Origin: a virus
Lineage: Duplodnaviria; Heunggongvirae; Uroviricota; Caudoviricetes
DNA length: 24,740 nt
Virus record (IMG/VR): IMGVR_UViG_648276671_000014
Strand: one strand, 5' to 3'
A program made the translations under genes and the position numbers. The first letter of the stretch is position 1, and the number at the start of each line of letters is the position of its first letter. Positions 1-21,644 of the stretch are shown here, in pieces. The notes under the pieces are model-generated. The model was not told the origin of the DNA. It searched no databases and worked only from the letters and a program-made list of their open reading frames with translations.

Positions 1-1056
1 TTATTGCGGGGTAATGCCAACCGCTGCCGCCACTTTGTCGCCATTTGGTAACGTTGCCAGTGGATTGAAACGGAGCGCCGTTTCCAAATGATCCGGTGCC
101 AGATGCGCATAACGCATAGTCATTTTTATATCGTGGTGTCCGAGAATTTTTTGTAAGGCCAAGATGTTTCCACCCGACATCATGAAGTGCGCCGCAAACG
201 TATGGCGCAGAACGTGTGTCAGTTGACCGCGAGGGAGAACGATAGACGTTTTTTCCATCACGGATAAAAATTGAAAATAGCAGTCTGTGAAGAAATTGAA
301 CCCATCGAGCGCCATGATCTCTTCATAAAGCTCTTTACTGATAGGGATGCTTCTGTTTTTCTTCCCCTTCGTTCTCACAAAGGTGATTCGGTACTTGGTG
401 ACCTGTGAGCGGGTAAGATTGATTGCTTCTCGCCAACGTGCGCCTGTACTTAGACATATTTTTACCACCAGTGCCAGAATTGGGTTCTGACGTTTGCAGT
501 CAGACAGTAATTCGATAATCTGCTCATGTGTAAGCCATGCCATTTCCTTTTCTGCGATAGTGAATTTGCGCATCTTCTCTAATGGGTTTGGAAGTGTCCA
601 TTCACCCAGGCGGGAAAGTTCTCTGAAAACGCTGCTTAGATGGCTTTGCTCCAGGTTAACAGTAACTGGGCTTGCTCCTTTCTTCCATTTTTCACTGAAG
701 TAGATTTCACCAGTAAGGCGTTTATCGCGATAGTGAGCAAACATTTTTGAGGTGAGATCAGTTGCAAGGGGATTTCCCAAGGCGTCAACCATCAACAGCA
801 GCTTGTTGTAGACATGCTGTCCGGCAGTAAGAGATTTGCCATGTAATTTGAACCATAGCTCAACCATATCTTTCAGTGTCCGACGATCCACTGATTCGCC
901 CAGCCAGGGCTTTGCTTCTATTTCCCCCATGGTGTATCGCTCGAAGGCCAGTGCTTCGCCTTTGGTGGCGAATTGTTTACGCACACGACGCCCATTACGT
1001 CCGGCGGGGTAACATTCGCAAAGCCATTTCCCTGTGGTGAGTTTTCGTACTGCCAT
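1..1056 (-). CDS. int: Tyrosine integrase (P2 Int-like)
   Basis: N-terminus MAVRKLTTGKW..GRNGRRVRKQF resembles the P2 Int start. Tyrosine-recombinase motifs are present: TGARWRE, HVLRHTFA, GHHDIKMTMRYAHL. Start moved to ATG 1056; the track's extension to 1212 has no integrase-like sequence. Confidence 0.9.
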   Translation of the reverse strand: MAVRKLTTGKWLCECYPAGRNGRRVRKQFATKGEALAFERYTMGEIEAKPWLGESVDRRTLKDMVELWFKLHGKSLTAGQHVYNKLLLMVDALGNPLATDLTSKMFAHYRDKRLTGEIYFSEKWKKGASPVTVNLEQSHLSSVFRELSRLGEWTLPNPLEKMRKFTIAEKEMAWLTHEQIIELLSDCKRQNPILALVVKICLSTGARWREAINLTRSQVTKYRITFVRTKGKKNRSIPISKELYEEIMALDGFNFFTDCYFQFLSVMEKTSIVLPRGQLTHVLRHTFAAHFMMSGGNILALQKILGHHDIKMTMRYAHLAPDHLETALRFNPLATLPNGDKVAAAVGITPQ

Positions 1057-1244
1057 AAAAAATGCCCTCCAGTAGAGAGCATTTTCACTGTATGTATAAC
1101 CAGTGTCAATGTATGAAATCCTACGACCATACATCTCACTGAAGCCATAATTAAGTTGGCTATTCTTTTTGCTATGTGAGCATGTAATTTTTGCGGTTAA
1201 CCTGCGGCTCATTTTTATTTTAGGCGCAGATATAAAAGCAAAAG

Positions 1245-1451: not shown

Positions 1452-2021
1452 CTATTTAACATACTTGACTGTTAAACTTATAATTTTACCAATTATTTCA
1501 ATGTCTTCTATCTTGCATTCGAAGGCTCTGTTTCCACCCTCGACGAAGATTCTTCCACCGGGTAAACGAGTAATGTCACGGATCGTTATTTCGCCATCAA
1601 TACTTATTACCCATTTACCATCACGTATATCATCAAATTCCTTATCACAAATAAATTCAAAATTATTATCTGTGATTACAAAAAGATTCTTGAATGCCGA
1701 CGGTAGAAATTCCCTATCGAAAATATAAAAACCGTCTTCACACAAGGCCCCATCAGATAATACATATTTAGCAACTTCCATAGTATTTGTATTACCTGAA
1801 GTTTGCTTTGAACCATGCCCGGTTGTGAGCCAATTAAGCGAGGTGCCCGTTTCAAGGGCGCACTGGATTACCCATTCTGCGGGGAATGAGTCACGCATGT
1901 AGCGTGTGGCGAGTGTACTTTTAGAGATTCCTAAATGATCGCACAACGCCTGTCGAGTCTTGAATCCATAAGCTTCTACCATGCGCTCTATAGCGCCTCG
2001 TCCGCCTTTCTCCAAATTCAT
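1452..2021 (-). CDS. cI: 186 CI-type immunity repressor (N-terminal HTH)
   Basis: About 190 aa. The HTH region EAYGFKTRQALCDHLGISKSTLATRY...CALETGTSLNWLTTG resembles coliphage 186 CI as I recall it. Divergent from the early operon. ATG 2021 has GGAG 5 nt upstream; the track's start at 2027 is GTG. Confidence 0.8.
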   Translation of the reverse strand: MNLEKGGRGAIERMVEAYGFKTRQALCDHLGISKSTLATRYMRDSFPAEWVIQCALETGTSLNWLTTGHGSKQTSGNTNTMEVAKYVLSDGALCEDGFYIFDREFLPSAFKNLFVITDNNFEFICDKEFDDIRDGKWVISIDGEITIRDITRLPGGRIFVEGGNRAFECKIEDIEIIGKIISLTVKYVK

Positions 2022-2045
2022 GGTCACTCCAAGTGAACTTTTGTC

Positions 2046-4201: not shown

Positions 4202-5055
4202 GCACCATCCTGAAATGGGCGGGAAATAAAACCGCCATTATGTCCGAACTGAAAAAACACCTTCCTGCTGGCCCGCGACTGGTTGAACCTTTCGCGGGTT
4301 CCTGTGCTGTGATGATGGCGACGGATTACCCCAGCTATCTGGTTGCTGATATTAATCCTGATTTAATCAACCTCTATAAAAAGATTGCCGCTGATTGCGA
4401 AGCGTTTATATCTCGTGCCAGAGCTTTATTTGAGGAAGCAAACAGGGAGGTGGCTTATTACAACATAAGGCAGGAGTTTAACTGCTCAACTGAAATTACT
4501 GACTTCATGAAAGCAGTATATTTCCTGTATCTCAATCGTCACGGTTACCGTGGGTTATGTCGCTATAACAAGAGCGGGCATTTCAACATTCCCTACGGTA
4601 ATTATAAAAATCCGTATTTCCCTGAAAAAGAAATTCGCGCATTTGCAGAGAAAGCCCAGCGAGCAACGTTTATCTGCGCCAGCTTTGATGAAACGCTGGC
4701 GATGCTGCAGGTGGGGGATGTGGTGTATTGCGATCCGCCTTATGACGGTACGTTTTCCGGCTATCACACTGACGGCTTCACTGAAGATGACCAGTATCAC
4801 CTGGCATCTGTTCTTGAATATCGATCATCAGAAGGTCATCCAGTCATTGTTTCTAACAGTGACACATCCCTGATCCGTTCGCTGTATCGAAATTTCACTC
4901 ACCACTACATCAAGGCAAAACGCAGCATCGGCGTGTCGGCTGGCGAGAGTAAATCTGCAACAGAAATCATTGCTGTTTCCGGGGCGCGCTGCTGGGTGGG
5001 ATTTGATCCTTCGTGTGGCGTGGATAGTTCTGCTGTGTACGAGGTGCGTATATGA
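4198..5055 (+). CDS. dam: DNA adenine methyltransferase (Dam, GATC-type, orphan)
   Basis: LKWAGNK, FAGSCAV (SAM-binding FxGxG) and catalytic DPPY are all present. ATGA overlap with the upstream stop. Start at ATG 4198, not the track's 4138. Confidence 0.9.
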
Positions 5056-7466
5056 GTCATGACGATATGAGCAACTCTAGCGGCTTTAACGAGGCCGCTG
5101 CAGCATTTTCATGGAACGGCCCGAAAAAGGCCATTAACCCTTATCTGGACCCGGCGGAAGTTGCGCCGGAGTCTGCACTTTCAAACCTGATCACTCTGTA
5201 CGCTGCCGATAATGAGCAGGAACAGCTGCGCCGCGATGCACTGAGTGAGCAGGTCTGGGAGCGTTATTTCTTTAATGAATCTCGTGATCCTGTCCAGCGC
5301 GAAATGGAGCAGGATAAGCTCATTAGCCGGGCAAAGCTGGCGCATGAACAGCAGCGTTTTAACCCGGACATGGTCATTCTGGCGGACGTCAGCGCCCAGC
5401 CCACCCATATTAGCAAGCCGCTGATGCAACGTATCGAATACTTCAGCAGCCTGGGCAGGCCAAAGGCTTATTCCCGCTATTTGCGTGAGACGATTAAGCC
5501 ATGTCTGGAGCGACTGGATTGTGTACGTGACAGTCAGCTGTCTGCTTCTTTCCGTTTTATGGCAAGCCATCAAGGGCTGGAGGGCCTGCTGATCCTGCCT
5601 GAAATGAGTCAGGATCAGGTGAAACGCCTGTCCACCCTGGTAGCTGCGCATATGAGCATGTGCCTTGATGCAGCTTGTGGCGATTTGTATGCCACCGATG
5701 ACGTTAAGCCAGAAGAAATCCGCAAGACATGGGAAAAGGTGGCGGCGGAAACCCTGCGTCTGGATGTCATCCCACCTGCGTTTGAGCAACTCCGTCGGAA
5801 AAGAAACCGCCGTAAACCCGTGCCCTATGAACTCATTCCGGGTTCGCTGGCGCGTATGTTGTGCGCCGACTGGTGGTATCGGAAATTATGGAAGATGCGT
5901 TGCGAATGGCGGGAAGAGCAGTTGCGTGCTGTCTGCCTGGTCAGCAAAAAAGCATCTCCCTATGTCAGCTATGAAGCCGTGATGCATAAACGTGAGCAGC
6001 GCCGTAAGTCGCTGGAGTTTTTCCGTTCTCATGAACTGGTGAACGAAGACGGCGACACGCTGGACATGGAGGATGTGGTAAACGCCAGCAGCAGCAACCC
6101 TGCGCATCGCCGCAATGAGATGATGGCCTGTGTTAAAGGTCTGGAGCTTATCGCGGAAATGCGCGGTGACTGCGCCGTTTTCTACACTATCACCTGTCCG
6201 TCACGTTTCCATTCCACGCTCAACAACGGCAGACCCAACCCAACCTGGACAAATGCGACGGTAAGACAAAGCAGCGATTATCTGGTCGGCATGTTTGCTG
6301 CATTTCGTAAGGCAATGCACAAAACCGGGTTGCGCTGGTATGGCGTACGGGTGGCTGAGCCGCACCATGACGGTACTGTGCACTGGCATCTCATGTGCTT
6401 CATGCGTAAAAAAGACCGCCGCGCCATCACTGCATTACTGCGTAAGTTTGCCATCCGTGTAGACCGCGAGGAGCTGGGCAACAATACGGGGCCACGCTTT
6501 AAGTCTGAGCTGATTAACCCGCGCAAAGGAACACCGACAAGCTACATCGCGAAATACATCAGTAAGAACATTGACGGGCGTGGTCTGGCTGGCGAGATCA
6601 GCAAGGAAACGGGTAAATCCCTGCGTGATAACGCCGAATACGTCAATGCCTGGGCGTCTCTGCATCGTGTTCAGCAGTTCCGCTTCTTTGGTATTCCGGG
6701 ACGTCAGGCTTACCGTGAACTTCGCTTGCTGGCTGGTCAGGCGGCAAGGCAACAGGGTGACAAAAAAGCAGGTGCGCCGATACTGGATGACCCGCGCCTT
6801 GATGCCATCCTGGCTGCTGCTGATGCTGGTTGTTTTGCCACCTACATCATGAAGCAGGGCGGCGTACTGGTTCCCCGTAAATATCACCTTATCAGAACCG
6901 CTTATGAAATCAACGAAGAGCCGACCGCCTATGGCGATCACGGCATTCGTATTTATGGCATCTGGTCACCCATTGCAGAGGGCAAGATCTGCACTCATGC
7001 AGTGAAGTGGAAAATGGTTCGTAAGGCCGTTGACGTTCAGGAGGCGGTAGCCGACCAGGGCGCTTGCGCCCCTTGGACTCGTGGCAATAACTGTCCCCTT
7101 GCTGAAAATTTGAACCAACAAGGGAAAGACAAATCAGCTGATGGGGATACCAGGACGGACATTACCCGCATGGATGACAAGGAGTTGCACGATTACCTGC
7201 ACAGTATGAGCAAAAAAGAGCGCCGGGAACTGGCTGCAAGGTTACGCCTGGTGAAACCGAAACGGCGTAAAGACTACAAACAGCGAATTACAGACCATCA
7301 GCGACAGCGGCTCGTCTATGAACTGAAGTCCAGAGGATTTGATGGCAGCGAGAAAGAGGTCGATTTACTCCTTCGCGGCGGCAGTATTCCGTCAGGAGCA
7401 GGCCTGCGTATCTTCTATCGGAACCAGCGTTTGCAGGAAGATGATAAGTGGCGAAACCTGTATTAA
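5052..7466 (+). CDS. A: Replication initiation endonuclease (P2 gpA family, rolling-circle HUH nuclease)
   Basis: 804 aa. HUH motif (VHWHLM) and paired tyrosines (SYIAKYISK) are characteristic of gpA. Position is after the early genes. Confidence 0.9.
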
Positions 7467-8052: not shown

Positions 8053-8322
8053 GAAACGTTGCTGGCGTCTGAACTTGCTTCTGGCGTCAGCAAGGTTGAA
8101 CAACGAGCTATGCGAGGCGTTAGTGTCAATTTGTTACCTTAACCACTATATATGCCAGGAAATTAACAGTTCTTAAGAAACCGCTTGCATGATCGAGCGC
8201 ATTGAACTTAAGTTTAAGTAACGAAATCAACAGATGATATTGTTGTCTAAATTTTAAAGATAATCTGTTGAGGTTGTAGGCGTCGGAGTGTAGACTTCCG
8301 CGCCATGTGAAAAGGGGGAGTT

Positions 8323-8538
8323 ATGTCAAGCATCGCCGCATTTAGCCTGGGTAACCCAGTTGAACGTCTGGCAAGGGTTCTTAAAGAGAACCAGGACAAA
8401 CTCAATCTTAGTAAAGATGGTTTTGTGTCCGTAGACTTGTCTAACAAAAGAGCAATGGATGCCATCAAGGCACAGATGGATAAGCTTGAAGGCATCAAAA
8501 CGAGCACTGTAAAAGAGAAAACTAATAGAACCAGATAA
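8323..8538 (+). CDS. Hypothetical small protein (71 aa), first gene of the AT-rich cargo cassette
   Basis: Strong SD GGGGGAG before ATG 8323. Stop TAA overlaps the next ATG (ATAATGG), indicating translational coupling. Confidence 0.6.
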   Translation: MSSIAAFSLGNPVERLARVLKENQDKLNLSKDGFVSVDLSNKRAMDAIKAQMDKLEGIKTSTVKEKTNRTR

Positions 8539-8738
8539 TGGCAACATTACTTTTAGCAGTGATTTTGGTTAGTGGTTTTATTTATGTAAACCTATCACTT
8601 TCAACAAGATACCGATATAAGCGTTCCAACGGCTGGGACGCTTATTTTTTGTGGCTGCCTGGGGTATCGTTTTTTTCTCCTTGGCGGTTTTTTCACCTTT
8701 ATTTTGAACGTCAGCGGAGGGTTTCGTTGGCTGGCTAA
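8538..8738 (+). CDS. N-terminal membrane segment ORF (66 aa), probably the 5' part of a frameshifted gene
   Basis: MATLLLAVILVSGFIYV is a TM helix. The frame leaves hydrophobic sequence after the T-runs at 8645-8693, while the +1 frame continues as TM-like sequence into ORF 8704-9378. Confidence 0.4.
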   Translation: MATLLLAVILVSGFIYVNLSLSTRYRYKRSNGWDAYFLWLPGVSFFSPWRFFHLYFERQRRVSLAG

Positions 8739-9378
8739 TGCCTTGAATCTAACACCTGACAGTTTTAATGGCATGTTGTCTTCATCGAAAGACAAACTTC
8801 AAAGAATAAATGAAATCAAACAGATAGCATGGGTTATGATTTCAATTGTTCTCGCTGCGATTTCAGGTTTTGGAAATAAGTTACGCACATCACGTGGAGA
8901 TCGTCGCTGGGATGCCTTAGCTAAAGCTGTGGGTAATAACGCTTTCGAATCATTACTCATGGAAGCGTCCGCAAGACAGTTTCCGATCATAGCAACTCTG
9001 TCGTCTCGCAAAATCTATGTTGGTCTTGTTACTTGTCCGGCGTTAGAAAACGGGCTTTCAGAACACCTTGAACTTCTCCCGATGTTAAGCGGATATCGGG
9101 ATAAAGATGATCTAACGATTAGTATCACGACTAACTATCACCAACATTATCTTGATAGTGGTGTGATAAGTGGAATGTCTCGGCTTAATATCGAAGATTT
9201 CCGTGTGCTCATACCAAAAGATGAGGTTGAAACAATTTCGTTTTTTGATACTGAGACATATAACAAATTTAAAGAAAATGAAGCCAGGGATAGAAAGAAC
9301 TGTCGAAAGATTGGTAGTAAAAGTGCATCTTCGCGCAGCAAGCGTGCAGCAGATGCTGAGTCAAATGATCGTGCATGA
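8704..9378 (+). CDS. Hypothetical membrane-associated protein (224 aa as listed; the frame is open back to 8590)
   Basis: The listed start is TTG with no ATG upstream in frame. Contains a TM helix (IAWVMISIVLAAISGFG) and a soluble C-terminal domain with a basic/acidic tail. AT-rich. Followed by a strong terminator. Confidence 0.55.
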   Translation: MNVSGGFRWLANALNLTPDSFNGMLSSSKDKLQRINEIKQIAWVMISIVLAAISGFGNKLRTSRGDRRWDALAKAVGNNAFESLLMEASARQFPIIATLSSRKIYVGLVTCPALENGLSEHLELLPMLSGYRDKDDLTISITTNYHQHYLDSGVISGMSRLNIEDFRVLIPKDEVETISFFDTETYNKFKENEARDRKNCRKIGSKSASSRSKRAADAESNDRA

Positions 9379-9473
9379 CTATGCTGCATGAGATCGCATG
9401 ATCGTTTGAGGATCGTTTTTGCTAAGGCCCGCCAGAACTGGCGGGCTTTTGCGTAGATCATGCACCTGCATGA
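9365..9473. repeat. Motif array next to cos: GCATGA x4 direct plus x1 inverted, and 5 GATC sites
   Basis: GCATGA at 9373, 9386, 9396 and 9468; TCATGC at 9458. GATC at 9367, 9392, 9400, 9411 and 9456. ATGATCGT is repeated at 9365 and 9398. Confidence 0.6.
9427..9450 (+). terminator. Rho-independent terminator
   Basis: GCCCGCCA (9427-9434), loop GAAC, TGGCGGGC (9439-9446), then TTTT. Lies 49 nt after the stop of ORF 8704-9378. Confidence 0.8.
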
Positions 9474-9495
9474 AAACTACTACATAAAGCGGGCA

Positions 9496-9514
9496 GGCGT
9501 GGCGGGGATACGAG
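9496..9514 (+). other. cos site core (19-nt cohesive-end sequence, P2/186 type)
   Basis: GGCGTGGCGGGGATACGAG followed by TGCGCG. As I recall, P2 is GGCGAGGCGGGGAAAGCAC followed by TGCGCGC and 186 is GGCGTGGCGGGGAAAGCAT, so the first 13 nt equal 186. Location between the A region and Q is as expected. Confidence 0.7.
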
Positions 9515-9538
9515 TGCGCGTAATAACTAATATTCCTA

Positions 9539-9567
9539 TTGACTTTCTATGATGCAATAGCTAATTT
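9539..9567 (+). promoter_or_regulatory. Candidate sigma70 promoter (TTGACT - 17 bp - TAATTT) for the tRNA-like leader and HEPN gene
   Basis: -35 at 9539-9544, 17-nt spacer, -10 at 9562-9567. The expected transcription start near 9574 coincides with the 5' end of the cloverleaf. Confidence 0.4.
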
Positions 9568-9573
9568 ATTTCT

Positions 9574-9657
9574 AGGCCTATAGTTTAATTTGGGAAAACG
9601 GCGGAGTATGATTTAGGTTATATATCCGTCATACCGGTTCGATTCCGGTTAGGCAAA
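9574..9657 (+). ncRNA. tRNA-like cloverleaf element (non-canonical: 19-nt anticodon-position loop, no CCA)
   Basis: Acceptor 9574-9580/9650-9656 pairs 5 of 7. TA at 9581-9582 (U8 A9). D stem GTTT/AAAC 9583-9586/9596-9599 with loop AATTTGGGA. Stem GCGGA/TCCGT 9601-9605/9625-9629. T stem ACCGG/CCGGT 9633-9637/9645-9649 with canonical loop TTCGATT. Confidence 0.4.
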
Positions 9658-9685
9658 GAGCATTTTAGAGTGTTCTTTGCCTAAC
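9648..9685 (+). promoter_or_regulatory. Long hairpin immediately 5' of the HEPN gene SD
   Basis: GTTAGGCAAAGA (9648-9659) pairs perfectly with TCTTTGCCTAAC (9674-9685). The stem extends with G-T, C-G, A-T, T-G and T-A to a TTAG tetraloop. No T-run follows. SD CAGGA at 9685-9689, ATG at 9698. The 5' arm is also the 3' acceptor strand of the tRNA-like fold. Confidence 0.6.
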
Positions 9686-9697
9686 AGGATACGTAAA

Positions 9698-10447
9698 ATG
9701 ACTGATGACGAGATTAAAAATATTTTCCATGCTCAAACTGATAATGTTAGAGAGCTTGAGAAAGTCTGGAAACAAATAGTCAAAGAAATTAATACTGCAT
9801 TACGAACAGATAATGCAGTCCAAGTTGCACTTAAAACCAAAATGCTAGGTTTGGTTTTTTGCGCTCTTGCCGAAGCTCAATTTTCAAAGTTGATCCACAC
9901 GCCCGGTCAATTTTCCCCTAATGAAATAGAACAGATTAAATATGCAGCTTCATCTAATGTCTCAGATGGATGGTTAAAGTGCATAAATTTGGCTACGAGA
10001 CGACTATCGAAAGGCACAAAGCATAATCATGTTCCTAATGTTATTCAGGAGCTTGAAAGACTAGTTGATGATTTTATAAAAGCGCCAAGTTTAATTAGAA
10101 ATAAAATTGCGCATGGACAATGGGTTGTCGCTCTTAATAGAAAGAATACACATGTGAACTCAGAAATGACACATACTTTGCGTAATTTGACAATAGTGGA
10201 ATTAACAAAGTTTAAAGATGCTTTCACGAGAATGTCGCGAATAGTCGAAGATATTATTAAATCTCCTAATAAAGCTCATTTGCGTGATTATTGGCCGCAG
10301 CTTGAAGAGTTTAGAGCAAAGCAAAAGGAAATGGATAGTTGGACTCTTGCTGAAAAAGTCTTCCAATTAAAAAAGAAATATAATTACTCATCTAATATGA
10401 GATGTGAATCATGCGGTCAGTTACATGTTGATAGAAATAAACAATGA
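9698..10447 (+). CDS. HEPN-domain protein (Rx4H motif RNKIAH), putative abortive-infection or toxin RNase
   Basis: 249 aa, all-helical-looking, with a single LIRNKIAHGQW motif (R-N-x3-H, classic HEPN active site). AT-rich cargo. ATG 9698 preferred because the track's TTG 9677 lies inside the hairpin. Confidence 0.75.
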   Translation: MTDDEIKNIFHAQTDNVRELEKVWKQIVKEINTALRTDNAVQVALKTKMLGLVFCALAEAQFSKLIHTPGQFSPNEIEQIKYAASSNVSDGWLKCINLATRRLSKGTKHNHVPNVIQELERLVDDFIKAPSLIRNKIAHGQWVVALNRKNTHVNSEMTHTLRNLTIVELTKFKDAFTRMSRIVEDIIKSPNKAHLRDYWPQLEEFRAKQKEMDSWTLAEKVFQLKKKYNYSSNMRCESCGQLHVDRNKQ

Positions 10448-10494
10448 TGATTATTATTTTGTGACACTTTCAATATTTTAATGCTTTATATATT

Positions 10495-10522
10495 AGCAAT
10501 GGTCATTAACATGACCATTGCT
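10495..10522. terminator. Perfect 12-bp hairpin between convergent HEPN and Q genes (possible bidirectional terminator)
   Basis: AGCAATGGTCAT, loop TAAC, ATGACCATTGCT. There is no clear T-run on either side, so the terminator function is uncertain. Confidence 0.45.
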
Positions 10523-18104: not shown

Positions 18105-18498
18105 AGCAGTGCCTTATGTCCGCAATAACCCGGACAAACTGCATCTGTTTGTGGATAACGGTTCGCTGGTTGCCACGGGGGCCAGCTCTATGTCGTGGGA
18201 GTACCGTTACACCCTGAACGCGGTGATTGAAGATTTCAGCGGCGACCAGAATCTGCTGATGGCCCCGGTTTTGCTGTGGCTGCGGGATAACCAGCCCGAT
18301 GCCATCAATAACCCGGCGTTACGGGAAAAGCTATTCACCTTTGAGGTGGATATTCTGCGCAACGATGTCTGTGATATCAGCCTTAACCTGCAACTGACGG
18401 AGCGTGTGCTGGTCAGCACTGACGGCAGTGTGTCGAACGTTGAAGCGGTAGCGGAACCTGATGAACCTGAAGAAATGTGGACGGTGAAACGTGGCTGA
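18067..18498 (+). CDS. R: Tail completion protein (P2 gpR)
   Basis: ...KPQSLRHALNKAV..NPDKLHLFVDNGSL...LLMAPVLLWLRDNQPD parallels P2 gpR. GTG 18067 with SD AGGAG 6 nt upstream is preferred over the track's TTG 18046. Confidence 0.8.
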   Translation: MNKPQSLRHALNKAVPYVRNNPDKLHLFVDNGSLVATGASSMSWEYRYTLNAVIEDFSGDQNLLMAPVLLWLRDNQPDAINNPALREKLFTFEVDILRNDVCDISLNLQLTERVLVSTDGSVSNVEAVAEPDEPEEMWTVKRG

Positions 18499-18937
18499 AT
18501 TGCAGAAGGTGGACGACTGGCTGAGTGCCTTGCTGGTGAATCTGGAGCCAGCCGCAAGAAGCCGTATGATGCGCCAACTGGCGCAGGAACTGCGCAGGAC
18601 ACAACAGAAGAACATCAGGATGCAGCGCAATCCAGATGGCAGTAGTTATGAACCGCGACGGGTAACAGCACGCAGTAAAAAGGGGCGTATCAAACGTCAG
18701 ATGTTTGCAAAGCTGCGCACCACAAAATACCTGAAAACTGCCGCCAGCGCCGATTCTGCCAGCGTACAGTTTGAAGGTAAGGTACAGCGCATTGCCCGTG
18801 TTCACCATTACGGTCTGCGTGATCGCGTAAATAAAAAAGGTTTAATCGCGAAATATCCGCAACGTACTTTATTGGGCTTATCTTATAAAACAGAAGAAAA
18901 TATTATTATGAGCATAAAGGAGGAGCTATCAAAATAA
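18491..18937 (+). CDS. S: Tail completion protein (P2 gpS), with an AT-rich replaced 3' end
   Basis: 148 aa, gpS-like (MAELQKVDDWLSALL..., HHYGLRDRVN...YPQRTLLGL). GC content drops sharply from about 18828 to the stop. Confidence 0.8.
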   Translation: MAELQKVDDWLSALLVNLEPAARSRMMRQLAQELRRTQQKNIRMQRNPDGSSYEPRRVTARSKKGRIKRQMFAKLRTTKYLKTAASADSASVQFEGKVQRIARVHHYGLRDRVNKKGLIAKYPQRTLLGLSYKTEENIIMSIKEELSK

Positions 18938-18977
18938 AGACGAGGAGGTTTAAATAACCCTCTCGTCTTTTGTTTTT
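18937..18977 (+). terminator. Rho-independent terminator ending the O-to-S late operon
   Basis: AAGACGAG (18937-18944) pairs with CTCGTCTT (18962-18969), followed by TTGTTTTT. Confidence 0.7.
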
Positions 18978-19203
18978 ATCCATAAGCCAGCTCCTGTGGA
19001 GATGGCGATTGATTAGCTGTTCATGTAAGAGTTAAATAGAGCTGAGATTTTTTGTGTATCCGTAACTGGATCAGTCGATGAGCCTTGTCTGATATAAAAC
19101 ATATTCTCAAAGTCGCAAATTTGACCTGTGCTCTGAATAGTTATCTTGAGTATGTGTAAGCCATTGTAAGAGCAAAACTCAATATTCTTAAGTATCTGCT
19201 GTT

Positions 19204-20787
19204 TTAGAGTTTCAGTGAAATCGTATCCTTGTATTTTTGTTTTATTAACATAAAGTAATCATCAATGCTACCAGAGACTAACATTGCTTCATGATCAATT
19301 CCGTTTATATAGAACCCATTGAACTCAATTGAATTTACTCCATATAAATGTTGAATTCTATCTGCGGTTAATTTATTTTCGGCAATACCAACTAAAATAT
19401 AGCCTTTTGCGCTTTTTCCAATATTATTTATTGCTACGCAAGTTTGTAATATTCCTTTTAAACATTCATCATCAAATTCATTTTTACCTGATAAATTAAA
19501 GAACCCCTGTTTGAAATCATAACTTGGTTGTTCAGTTCTAGAATTTGTTAATAGATTGCGAATTTCAGTTACCCAAGCATGATTCACATACTTTTGAGGA
19601 GCAGGTTGGAAGTAGCGACTTATTAATGCAACAAGATCATTAACACTTTTTTCACGAGTGCTTGCAGCCCAGCGGCCACCATCGGTAACCATAATTATGG
19701 TATTGCCAGTGTTTTTTAATTGCGAGAATAAACCTTCTTTATCAATTAATTGCATATTTTGGTTGAAAAGAAGTTCATAAATAGACAAAAACACAGCTTG
19801 ATAATAACGAGGGCATTCTTGAGATGAATTATCCTCCCCTAAAATATGGCTTCTAAAAGTATCATTTTTTCCGTCATATAGGCTTGTAATTAATTCATAT
19901 ACAGCTATGAAATTCTGCTTAATAGTGGCAGCGTTATTGGTTTGAATGAAAGACTCTAATTGCTGTCTGACACCATGAGCATGAGAGGAGTTTCCTTGAC
20001 CATAGAATGTGTCGAGAGAAGTTGACCCAGATGTGGGTTTTTCTTCTAGACTGATATATGCAAGGATATTGGCTATCAATTCCTCGTCATCAGAATCACG
20101 AATACTTCGTCTTGTTAAAATATGATGTTTTATATAAAAGTGGTTATCGATATTTACCCCGTACTCCAATCTATCGTTACTGATTGAAATTTTGTGCATT
20201 TGCTGGAGATTCATAATGTCAGAATGGCTAGTATCACCTCTGATCGATGTTGATATCGATCTGACCAGTTCAGAGAAGTTACTAACTGTTCCTGCACTAC
20301 GTAATTCTTGTTTGGATAAAATCTTCCCGTTTGAGTTTATTCGTCTGAATACTTCGTCAATATTTTCATTTGTGGAGCTATATTCTGATATTGCAAATCG
20401 ATAACGTGCAATAATTGCTGAAGAATCACGGGAAAGAATTGGTTCTTTCTGAATTAAAGTTCCATTATCTTTAAGTTGTTTTGTTAAAGCTATAGAGTCC
20501 AAATCAAAATATTGTCCATCTAATGAAAATCTCTGTTCGATGAAGCTCATAATTGCTTCTAATCTTTGCATTCCATCCAATATTTCTCTTTGTTCATTGA
20601 TGGTAACAAATAATAATAACGGAATAGGATATTGTTGCAGCATAGAAGATATTAAAGAAGTCTTTTCTTCTAGAGACCATACAAGTTTCCTTTGATAACG
20701 TCTATTGACTATCAAATTTCCTTGCAAATACCATTCGTATAATTGCTCGGTAGTCCTTGAGTCAATATCAAGATTTTCATTTGGCAT
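19204..20787 (-). CDS. DUF262 (ParB/GmrSD N-terminal type) protein with a Schlafen/AlbA_2-like C-terminal domain; candidate single-gene defence protein
   Basis: 527 aa from ATG 20787 (SD AAGGAG 8 nt upstream). DUF262 motifs: NRRYQRKLVW, ILDGMQRL (DGQQR-type), VFRRINSNGKILSKQELRSA. The C-terminus EQPSYDFKQG...CVAINNIGKSAKGYILVGIAE fits the AlbA_2 pattern (ExxxxEFK ... AxxN..GG.l.iGv). About 30% GC. Antisense to the late operons. Confidence 0.8.
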   Translation of the reverse strand: MPNENLDIDSRTTEQLYEWYLQGNLIVNRRYQRKLVWSLEEKTSLISSMLQQYPIPLLLFVTINEQREILDGMQRLEAIMSFIEQRFSLDGQYFDLDSIALTKQLKDNGTLIQKEPILSRDSSAIIARYRFAISEYSSTNENIDEVFRRINSNGKILSKQELRSAGTVSNFSELVRSISTSIRGDTSHSDIMNLQQMHKISISNDRLEYGVNIDNHFYIKHHILTRRSIRDSDDEELIANILAYISLEEKPTSGSTSLDTFYGQGNSSHAHGVRQQLESFIQTNNAATIKQNFIAVYELITSLYDGKNDTFRSHILGEDNSSQECPRYYQAVFLSIYELLFNQNMQLIDKEGLFSQLKNTGNTIIMVTDGGRWAASTREKSVNDLVALISRYFQPAPQKYVNHAWVTEIRNLLTNSRTEQPSYDFKQGFFNLSGKNEFDDECLKGILQTCVAINNIGKSAKGYILVGIAENKLTADRIQHLYGVNSIEFNGFYINGIDHEAMLVSGSIDDYFMLIKQKYKDTISLKL

Positions 20788-20816
20788 AATTTTTCTCCTT
20801 GTTAGATTGAACTTAT

Positions 20817-20845
20817 ATATTGTCAATAAACATCTTTTGTGTCAA
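20817..20845 (-). promoter_or_regulatory. Candidate sigma70 promoter for the DUF262 gene (TTGACA - 17 - CAATAT with TGn extended -10)
   Basis: Minus-strand TTGACA at 20845-20840, 17-nt spacer, TGaCAATAT ending at 20817. This predicts a leader of about 23 nt containing the SD. Confidence 0.4.
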
Positions 20846-21065: not shown

Positions 21066-21644
21066 ATGAACGCACAATTAACCGAAATCATGCGCCTTAT
21101 CACCAACCTGATCCGCACTGGTGTAGTCACCGAAGTGGACCGGGAGAATTGGCTTTGCCGGGTGAAAACGGGCGACCTTGAAACTAACTGGATCAGTTGG
21201 CTGACGCTGCGCGCGGGTAATGCCCGGACATGGTGGCGACCATCGGAAGGTGAGCAGGTGGTGCTGCTGAGTCTGGGCGGAAATCTGGAAACCGCCTTTG
21301 CGTTGCCCGCCATCTATTCGAATCAGTTCGCTCCACCGTCGACATCAGCGGATGCCTGCGTGACAGAGCATCCTGACGGCGGCTGGTTTGAATATGAACC
21401 CGCCACCGGGCGCTGGTTTGTCAGGGGCATCAAATCAATGGTCATTGAGACCGCTGACAATATCACCCTGAAAACCAGTGAGTTTGTGCTGGAGGCTGAC
21501 CGCACGCGTATTAACAGCGAAGTATTGATCAATGGTGGCGTTACCCAGGGCGGCGGTGCGATGAGTTCTAACGGGATCGTGGTTGATGCGCATCAGCATA
21601 CTGGCGTCCTGAAAGGCGGCGATACAACCGGAGGCCCGGTATGA
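21066..21644 (+). CDS. V: Baseplate spike/assembly protein (P2 gpV)
   Basis: 192 aa. ...LIRTGVVTEVD...CRVKTGDLETNWISWLTLRAGNARTWW.PSEGEQV parallels P2 gpV. Confidence 0.9.
   Translation: MNAQLTEIMRLITNLIRTGVVTEVDRENWLCRVKTGDLETNWISWLTLRAGNARTWWRPSEGEQVVLLSLGGNLETAFALPAIYSNQFAPPSTSADACVTEHPDGGWFEYEPATGRWFVRGIKSMVIETADNITLKTSEFVLEADRTRINSEVLINGGVTQGGGAMSSNGIVVDAHQHTGVLKGGDTTGGPV

Follow-up and report, generated by a model that had tools for sequence, protein, structure and literature searches.

The stretch of DNA analysed here (the window) is 24,740 nucleotides long (IMG/VR record IMGVR_UViG_648276671_000014) and represents a P2-like prophage. Between its tail completion gene S and its baseplate gene V it carries a one-gene cargo, or moron, that encodes a fusion of a DUF262 domain to a Schlafen domain. 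The explanation that best accounts for the locus overall, at a probability of roughly 0.75, is that this moron of the S-V gap is a DUF262-Schlafen defence gene and that the copy in the window is most likely inactive. A single-gene anti-phage role, proposed in a preliminary description of this DNA, is also the best reading of the intact alleles given their domains, the hotspot in which the gene lies and, by analogy, the published phenotype of EcoSlfn7, an Escherichia coli protein of the same architecture. That description thus stands for the domains, the location and the defence role, whereas its claim of novelty is outdated, the promoter that it proposed is weak and the end that it gave to the open reading frame (ORF) is wrong.

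The cargo site is bordered on the left by a gpS-type tail completion gene (18491-18937, plus strand), identified from the RefSeq annotation of a 99.6% identical prophage and from Pfam Phage_tail_S in homologous loci, and on the right by a gpV baseplate gene (21066-21644, plus strand), identified in the same way from annotation and from Pfam Phage_base_V in homologous loci. The gap between them spans 2,128 bp with a GC content of 0.339 and holds one gene only. Its ORF, at 19204..20787 on the minus strand, is real and was correctly placed by the preliminary description, as were its AT-richness (GC 0.334 for the gene and 0.56 for the late genes on either side) and its correspondence in position to P2 orf30, a non-essential gene that occupies the same gap and also lies on the minus strand. 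The ORF encodes 527 residues from its ATG, or 540 residues if an alternative TTG start at 20826 were used, and the 527-residue protein is identical to RefSeq WP_042900211.1. It comprises the DUF262 domain and a mainly helical middle domain, as well as the N-terminal ~100 residues of a Schlafen/AlbA_2 domain.

The end of this ORF had been taken as the end of the gene, and a frameshift was thereby overlooked; the real end is at 19013. Pairwise and multi-haplotype alignments place the frameshift at 19234..19238, where the window has five T on the plus strand (five A in the coding sense) and intact alleles have six. Relative to 99.6% identical copies, one A is therefore absent from an A6 tract, and pairwise alignment with the locus of E. 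coli C21, which is 99.6% identical and whose protein is annotated at 591 residues, shows this single indel as AAAAC-AAAAATAC in the window and AAAACAAAAAATAC in the intact allele. Past codon 516 the window frame runs through 11 out-of-frame residues (YKDTISLKL...) to a premature stop, so that residues 517-591, the last 75 of the intact protein, are out of frame. The out-of-frame remnant, at 19013..19234 on the minus strand, is open to the true stop, and its last 73 codons (IQGYDFTETLKQQ...FNSYMNS) align with the intact 591-residue protein; intact alleles stop at the equivalent of window position 19013. Just downstream of this stop is a bidirectional intrinsic-terminator hairpin (18936..18977) with a predicted RNA folding energy of -16.9 kcal/mol on the plus strand and -18.0 kcal/mol on the minus strand (z about -4.5) and a U-tract on both strands, a position that fits a gene originally ending at 19013. 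The hairpin is common to the transcript of S (the O-operon) and that of the antisense cargo gene, and P2 annotates the O-operon terminator there; it was missed by a terminator scan and confirmed by folding.

A sequencing error behind the frameshift was ruled out because the same truncated 527-residue protein is encoded, besides the RefSeq entry, in assembly GCA_052850915.1 and in an independent Sequence Read Archive (SRA) run. These two further copies share the deletion, and 11 positions of the 2.1-kb gap distinguish them from the window; once the intact alleles are added to the alignment the deletion is seen on two haplotype backgrounds.

The N-terminal domain matches Pfam GmrSD_N (DUF262) over residues 23-165 (20293..20721, minus strand) with an E-value of 1.3e-17, which bears out the earlier assignment of DUF262 motifs. 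In an alignment of 38 homologues its three motifs, NRRYQRKLVW (residues 28-37), DGMQR (71-75) and FRRINsnGxxLsxQElR (147-163), are invariant or nearly so. The helical middle domain covers residues ~170-415 (19543..20280, minus strand), as judged from AF2 secondary structure and from a match to the PADLOC model for NsnA. The Schlafen catalytic motif E419-x4-D424-x-K426 (within TEQPSYDFKQG; 19510..19533, minus strand) follows, and the residues E419-QPSY-D424-F-K426 are invariant in all 38 homologues, as are E500 and R567. The 'ExxxYDFK' pattern noticed earlier is therefore the Ex4(E/D)xK motif, as it is defined for prokaryotic Schlafens (PMC13056530). For the domain as a whole, the earlier assignment of an AlbA_2/Schlafen C-terminus holds for the intact allele, which scores 27.5 bits against SLFN_AlbA_2 over profile positions 1-117 of 118 (residues 419-575). 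It does not hold for the ORF as it stands in the window, which scores 15.3 bits over profile positions 1-43 and falls below the gathering score of 25.3 because the frameshift truncates the domain. The break leaves E419, D424, K426 and E500 upstream and removes ~40% of the Schlafen domain, including four β-strands (residues 537-575), the helices at 526-535 and 578-590, and the invariant R567. Since the effector fold is broken, no activity is expected, and we consider the truncated copy to be probably inactive on the strength of its sequence.

Two-domain homologues of ~590-600 residues were found in Enterobacterales, Vibrio, Aeromonas, Pseudomonas, cyanobacteria and Paenibacillus (1,756 matches). 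Across this range, out to the cyanobacteria and Paenibacillus, the Ex4DxK motif is invariant and the DUF262 motifs are invariant or nearly so. Structure comparison with Foldseek gave ParB, Noc and BrxU as the set of matches to the N-terminal domain and SAMD9 and Schlafen proteins as the set for the C-terminal domain, which has a Schlafen C-lobe-like fold. In the structure comparison table the SAMD9 AlbA_2/tRNase domain scored 11.1, DIP2311 10.0, SLFN12 9.3, BrxU 9.1, SLFN5 8.8, SLFN11 8.7 and SspE 7.8; the C-terminal domain best matches the AlbA_2 domain of SAMD9 in a crystal structure with DNA. A single-sequence search of the PDB gave only a marginal and irrelevant match to HNH-nuclease chains, and a profile search of the PDB matched BrxU weakly (E 6e-5). 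The protein has no match in NCBIfam, and PHROG 26759, of unknown function, matches it over its full length. Among the PADLOC models, NsnA of the Menshen system matches residues 9-348 (E 3e-23) and PD-T4-2_A matches residues 10-181 (E 1e-17). The PADLOC check proposed for the protein thus yielded N-terminal matches, but no full-length model in the 2023 release matches a DUF262-Schlafen protein.

The architecture had been described as uncharacterised, and this no longer holds, as DUF262-Slfn proteins have been catalogued and the defence activity of EcoSlfn7 has been published (as a preprint in 2025 and in Nature Microbiology in 2026). For the prokaryotic family, Perez Taboada et al. (bioRxiv 2025; Nat Microbiol 2026, PMC13056530) collected 5,930 prokaryotic Schlafens in 55 architectures, in which DUF262 fusions account for 1.8%, and 30% of the genes do not lie near known defence genes. 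Seven Enterobacterales systems were assayed from their native promoters; among them EcoSlfn7, the DUF262-Slfn protein of E. coli UC4224, reduced the plating of T7 538-fold and acted as a broad anti-phage protein that was strongest on T7. RorSlfn5 is the only one for which they worked out the mechanism: the T5 tail assembly chaperone is bound by its Ig-like sensor, and its nuclease cuts the anticodon arm of tRNA; its catalytically dead mutant is E15A/D20A, and the E-x4-D spacing is as in the window gene (PMC13056530). Other papers of 2026 describe a tRNase, the CRISPR-associated Schlafen (Cash), and a Schlafen defence gene of Enterococcus.

By its sequence the window gene is of the DUF262-Slfn architecture of this published defence family. 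Like EcoSlfn7, it combines an N-terminal DUF262 domain with a C-terminal Schlafen domain that contains Ex4(E/D)xK, and both are single-gene systems of E. coli with a promoter of their own, a putative one in the case of the window gene; unlike EcoSlfn7, the window copy is frameshifted, and its location in the S-V gap of a prophage is a setting that the EcoSlfn7 paper does not describe. With RorSlfn5 and Cash, both of them phage-activated tRNases, it shares the nuclease superfamily and the E-x4-D-x-K variant of the catalytic motif. The nuclease is C-terminal in the window gene, whereas it is N-terminal in RorSlfn5 and Cash, and the sensors differ: an Ig-like domain in RorSlfn5, a cA4-binding Csx15 domain in Cash and the ParB-fold, NTPase-like DUF262 domain here. 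The AlbA_2 tRNase domains of human SLFN11, SLFN12, SLFN5 and SAMD9 have 8-16% sequence identity to the domain of the window gene, and these eukaryotic proteins have two paired lobes, with helicase or other domains, and a sensor module unrelated to that found here.

For the intact 591-residue alleles these comparisons suggest the following mechanism. Transcription of the gene would oppose that of the late operons, start from signals of its own and end at the terminator shared with S, and the lysogen would make the protein. By analogy with GmrSD, BrxU and SspE, the DUF262 domain together with the helical domain would act as an NTP-dependent sensor or switch. Upon infection this sensor may license the C-terminal Schlafen nuclease, with E419, D424, K426 and probably E500 as its catalytic residues, and the nuclease would most likely cut tRNA, as do RorSlfn5, Cash, SLFN11 and SAMD9; the resulting shutdown of translation would lower the yield of the superinfecting phage. 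We infer the trigger, the target, the expression in the lysogen and the loss of function in the window copy, and the defence phenotype itself comes from the literature on EcoSlfn7.

The upstream region that would contain the promoter (20788..20845, minus strand) has a Shine-Dalgarno sequence, AAGGAG (20800-20795), at a distance of 7 nt from the ATG, together with TTGACA hexamers at 20845-20840 and 20826-20821. The hexamers are what stands of the 'own TTGACA promoter' of the preliminary description. There is no canonical -10 box at 16-18 nt from either of them, and a consensus promoter scan detected no minus-strand promoter upstream of the gene, with 7 sites found across the region where shuffled sequences predict 9.8. 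A promoter of the gene's own is thus weakly supported by the sequence.

Among the other explanations the one that survives best is that the intact protein works in the manner of a type IV restriction enzyme, in which DUF262 would recognise (possibly modified) phage DNA and the AlbA_2 domain would take the place of DUF1524 and bind or cut DNA rather than tRNA. The N-terminal domain is indeed homologous to those of BrxU and SspE, the C-terminal domain is structurally closest to the DNA-bound SAMD9 crystal mentioned above, and the RefSeq name of the protein is 'GmrSD restriction endonuclease domain-containing'. The defining nuclease of such enzymes is missing, however: GmrSD, BrxU and SspE (type IV restriction enzymes and phosphorothioate (PT)-sensing nickases) share the N-terminal DUF262 NTPase-like domain but end in a C-terminal DUF1524 HNH-type DNA nuclease, where the window gene has Schlafen/AlbA_2 instead. 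As the preliminary description had also noted, this partner domain is lacking; no Pfam match to DUF1524 or HNH was obtained at E-values up to 1 with either the truncated or the intact protein. Membership of the GmrSD family was ruled out on this ground. In addition, the invariant motif is the Ex4(E/D)xK of Schlafen RNases, and the characterised relatives RorSlfn5, Cash and SAMD9 all cut tRNA. T7 DNA is not hypermodified, and T7 is the phage on which EcoSlfn7 is most active. We therefore regard a type IV-like activity as unlikely. In the annotation produced by PGAP at one homologous locus (L001, 20114-21889) the name 'GmrSD restriction endonuclease domain-containing protein' is misleading, as DUF1524 is absent and the C-terminus is Schlafen/AlbA_2.

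The survey of alleles bears on what the truncation means. Chromosomal carriers number 28 among 5,426 complete E. coli genomes, and the 1,776-nt gene is intact in 25 of them (26 counting one at 99.6%). A 71-nt probe across the frameshift site matched 19 complete E. coli genomes, and the extra base is present in all 19. All three near-identical IMG/VR copies are likewise intact, and most of the 205 listed members of the protein cluster are 591 residues long. Independent inactivations were also seen: IS1B insertions break the gene in NZ_CP031134.1 and NZ_CP195467.1, and the copy in NZ_CP044293.1 (strain P276M) is 10 nt shorter, so that about 1 in 9 of the complete-genome copies is disrupted. As for the two deletion haplotypes, all four differences between them inside the ORF are synonymous, and two of the shared synonymous sites vary among intact alleles too. 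The L091/L092 background also includes intact alleles, and the window is a mosaic of two intact haplotype groups. The sequences point to either recurrent slippage or spread by recombination as the origin of the deletion on two backgrounds.

One reading of these data is that the intact alleles are Schlafens of a mechanistically new kind, in which a ParB-fold, NTP-dependent DUF262 switch senses phage nucleic acid and gates a tRNase, and that the A6 deletion works as a recurrent off-switch and so eases the burden of carrying the gene. The DUF262 switch would then sense nucleic acid, as opposed to the phage protein sensed by RorSlfn5; we think it rather improbable that all of this applies. A further explanation, quite improbable in our judgement, is that the 527-residue protein is itself functional, for example as a DUF262 NTPase whose partial C-terminus leaves it a regulator or decoy, or that slippage in the A-tract turns a costly defence gene on and off. 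Its appeal is that the same deletion occurs in three data sets on two backgrounds with only synonymous differences in the ORF, and that E419, D424, K426 and E500 all lie ahead of the break. Against a functional truncation are the predominance of intact copies in each of the sets surveyed, the loss of strands, helices and the invariant R567 from the nuclease fold, and the variation of the two shared synonymous sites among intact alleles as well. Phase variation is in turn hard to reconcile with a tract as short as A6, which is simply Lys-Gln-Lys-Ile coding sequence in an AT-rich gene and encodes an IKQKI that is conserved in the protein.

A paralogue carried on IncF plasmids, WP_100038971.1, is 69% identical in amino acid sequence over its full length and lies between pemIK and parM (for example at 4836-6608 of locus L010, from the IncFII plasmid NZ_CP060753.1). 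It has the same length, architecture and annotation ('GmrSD restriction endonuclease domain-containing protein') as the prophage gene, and differs in being carried on plasmids and not on prophages. DNA related to the paralogue is found in 816 of the 5,426 complete E. coli genomes, nearly always on plasmids and most often truncated; truncated plasmid fragments are annotated as 'AlbA family DNA-binding' or 'RNA-binding domain-containing'.

Several points weigh against an S-V defence moron with an inactive copy in the window, or against parts of that reading. The chromosome of UC4224, at 5,047,333 bp, matches none of the 28 chromosomal carriers, and EcoSlfn7 is probably another allele, possibly the IncF-plasmid paralogue described above. 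For no DUF262-Slfn protein has a trigger or a target been published. The tRNA target is proposed by analogy, and AlbA_2 domains also bind DNA, as in the DNA-binding domain (DBD) of SAMD9. The promoter elements depart from the canonical pattern. Finally, the truncated allele has been retained on two haplotypes, where the only changes within the ORF are synonymous, and this leaves some room for residual function.

In order to place the gene in its genomic context, a survey of the S-V gap, proposed in the preliminary description, was carried out on 79 IMG/VR loci with close homologues of S and V, and it found a cargo hotspot with defence genes. The gap is empty in 29 of the 79 loci (86-110 bp, GC 0.53) and filled by AT-rich inserts in the other 50 (GC 0.31-0.37), which fall into 21 length classes of 670-2,232 bp; the main ORF is antisense in 18 of the 19 insert classes examined. 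The DUF262-Schlafen gene occupies 4 of the 50 filled gaps. Other cargo includes PARIS AriA with AriB, AbiU/AIPR, PDC-S59 and PDC-S49 (a KAP NTPase), as well as an ApeA-like protein, an OLD/Gabija/AriAB-like ATPase-Toprim protein, a NucC-like PD-DExK nuclease and an FRG-domain protein. Because related phages have PARIS, AbiU, PDC and other defence genes in it, the S-V gap is a defence-rich cargo hotspot. Examples of cargo loci, from the set L011-L090, are L026 5053-7286, L027 5414-7354, L033 5393-7386 and L088 5405-6868. Nine small cargo genes and P2 orf30 itself have no PADLOC match, and about ten cargo classes, for example those of L014, L025, L034 and L044, are without a defence annotation. 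Classical descriptions of P2 hotspots give only the old/tin and Z/fun sites; a 2026 survey mentions a P2 hotspot "within the tail genes", and the S-V cargo site fits that remark. Neither orf30 nor DUF262 nor Schlafen is mentioned in Rousset 2022, in the NAR 2026 paper on P2/P4 or in the iLund4u preprint.

In Enterobacter prophages an 89% identical homologue occupies the same S-V gap in the same orientation, and in Vibrio a homologue of 58% identity is part of an island that has an integrase and a CI repressor at its flanks. A Pseudomonas homologue stands alone among housekeeping genes, and one from Paenibacillus adjoins HerA-like and DUF4365 genes. No conserved neighbour gene was seen in Vibrio, Pseudomonas or Paenibacillus, and the Pseudomonas and Paenibacillus homologues, being without conserved neighbours, indicate that the gene is a single-gene unit. 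That the cargo is a lysogenic-conversion, addiction or toxin gene, or in any host a functionless decaying remnant, is very improbable: while 30% of prokaryotic Schlafen genes lie away from known defence genes, the Pseudomonas homologue is isolated and the IncF plasmid copies are mostly truncated, both domains and all motifs are conserved at full length across phyla, the prophage site elsewhere carries PARIS, AbiU and PDC systems, and a defence phenotype is published for the same architecture.

Relationships to three other entities were considered and rejected. The PADLOC models for NsnA and PD-T4-2_A belong to multi-gene systems and do not cover the Schlafen domain. The NsnA match reflects shared homology of the DUF262-plus-helical region (residues 9-348 only), and the Menshen system was ruled out, as there is no NsnB or NsnC beside the gene and the gap holds a single gene. 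PD-T4-2 was ruled out in the same manner, with a match to the A model only (residues 10-181) and no PD-T4-2_B in the gap. P2 orf30 resembles the window gene in occupying the same gap and in being antisense, AT-rich and non-essential; homology to its 261-residue product was ruled out, the best BLASTP match having an E-value of 0.02 over 32 residues.

The remainder of the window has the layout of a P2-like prophage. An integrase gene (1-1212, minus strand) marks the left end and is followed by a CI repressor gene (1452-2027, minus strand); after the latter come the replication gene, portal, terminase, capsid and lysis genes, R and S, and beyond the S-V gap V, W, J, I and the tail fibre gene. The gpA-gpQ (old/tin) hotspot, at 8100-10500, is also AT-rich (GC 0.32-0.43). 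It contains two plus-strand ORFs, at 8704-9378 (224 residues) and 9677-10447 (256 residues), that belong to PHROGs 3630 and 12663 of unknown function and have no Pfam or PADLOC match; they are candidate unknown defence genes. At the corresponding place the otherwise near-identical C21 prophage carries other cargo (CDI immunity, RNase A-like and HNH proteins).

The window gene is probably a defective member of the DUF262-Schlafen family, and it adds little that is new in kind, since such fusions are already on record and defence against phages has been demonstrated for a member from E. coli. The automated label 'GmrSD restriction endonuclease' was applied to it despite the fact that the GmrSD nuclease is absent. 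What matters most for the biology of the family is the control of a Schlafen nuclease by a DUF262 NTPase, which lies beyond the reach of sequence alone; the window copy, as a natural C-terminal truncation, could serve as a negative control beside the intact 591-residue allele. The allele family is now placed in a little-described cargo site of P2-like phages, the S-V (orf30) gap, and this gap, in which several cargo genes are unannotated, is a practical hunting ground for new defence genes.

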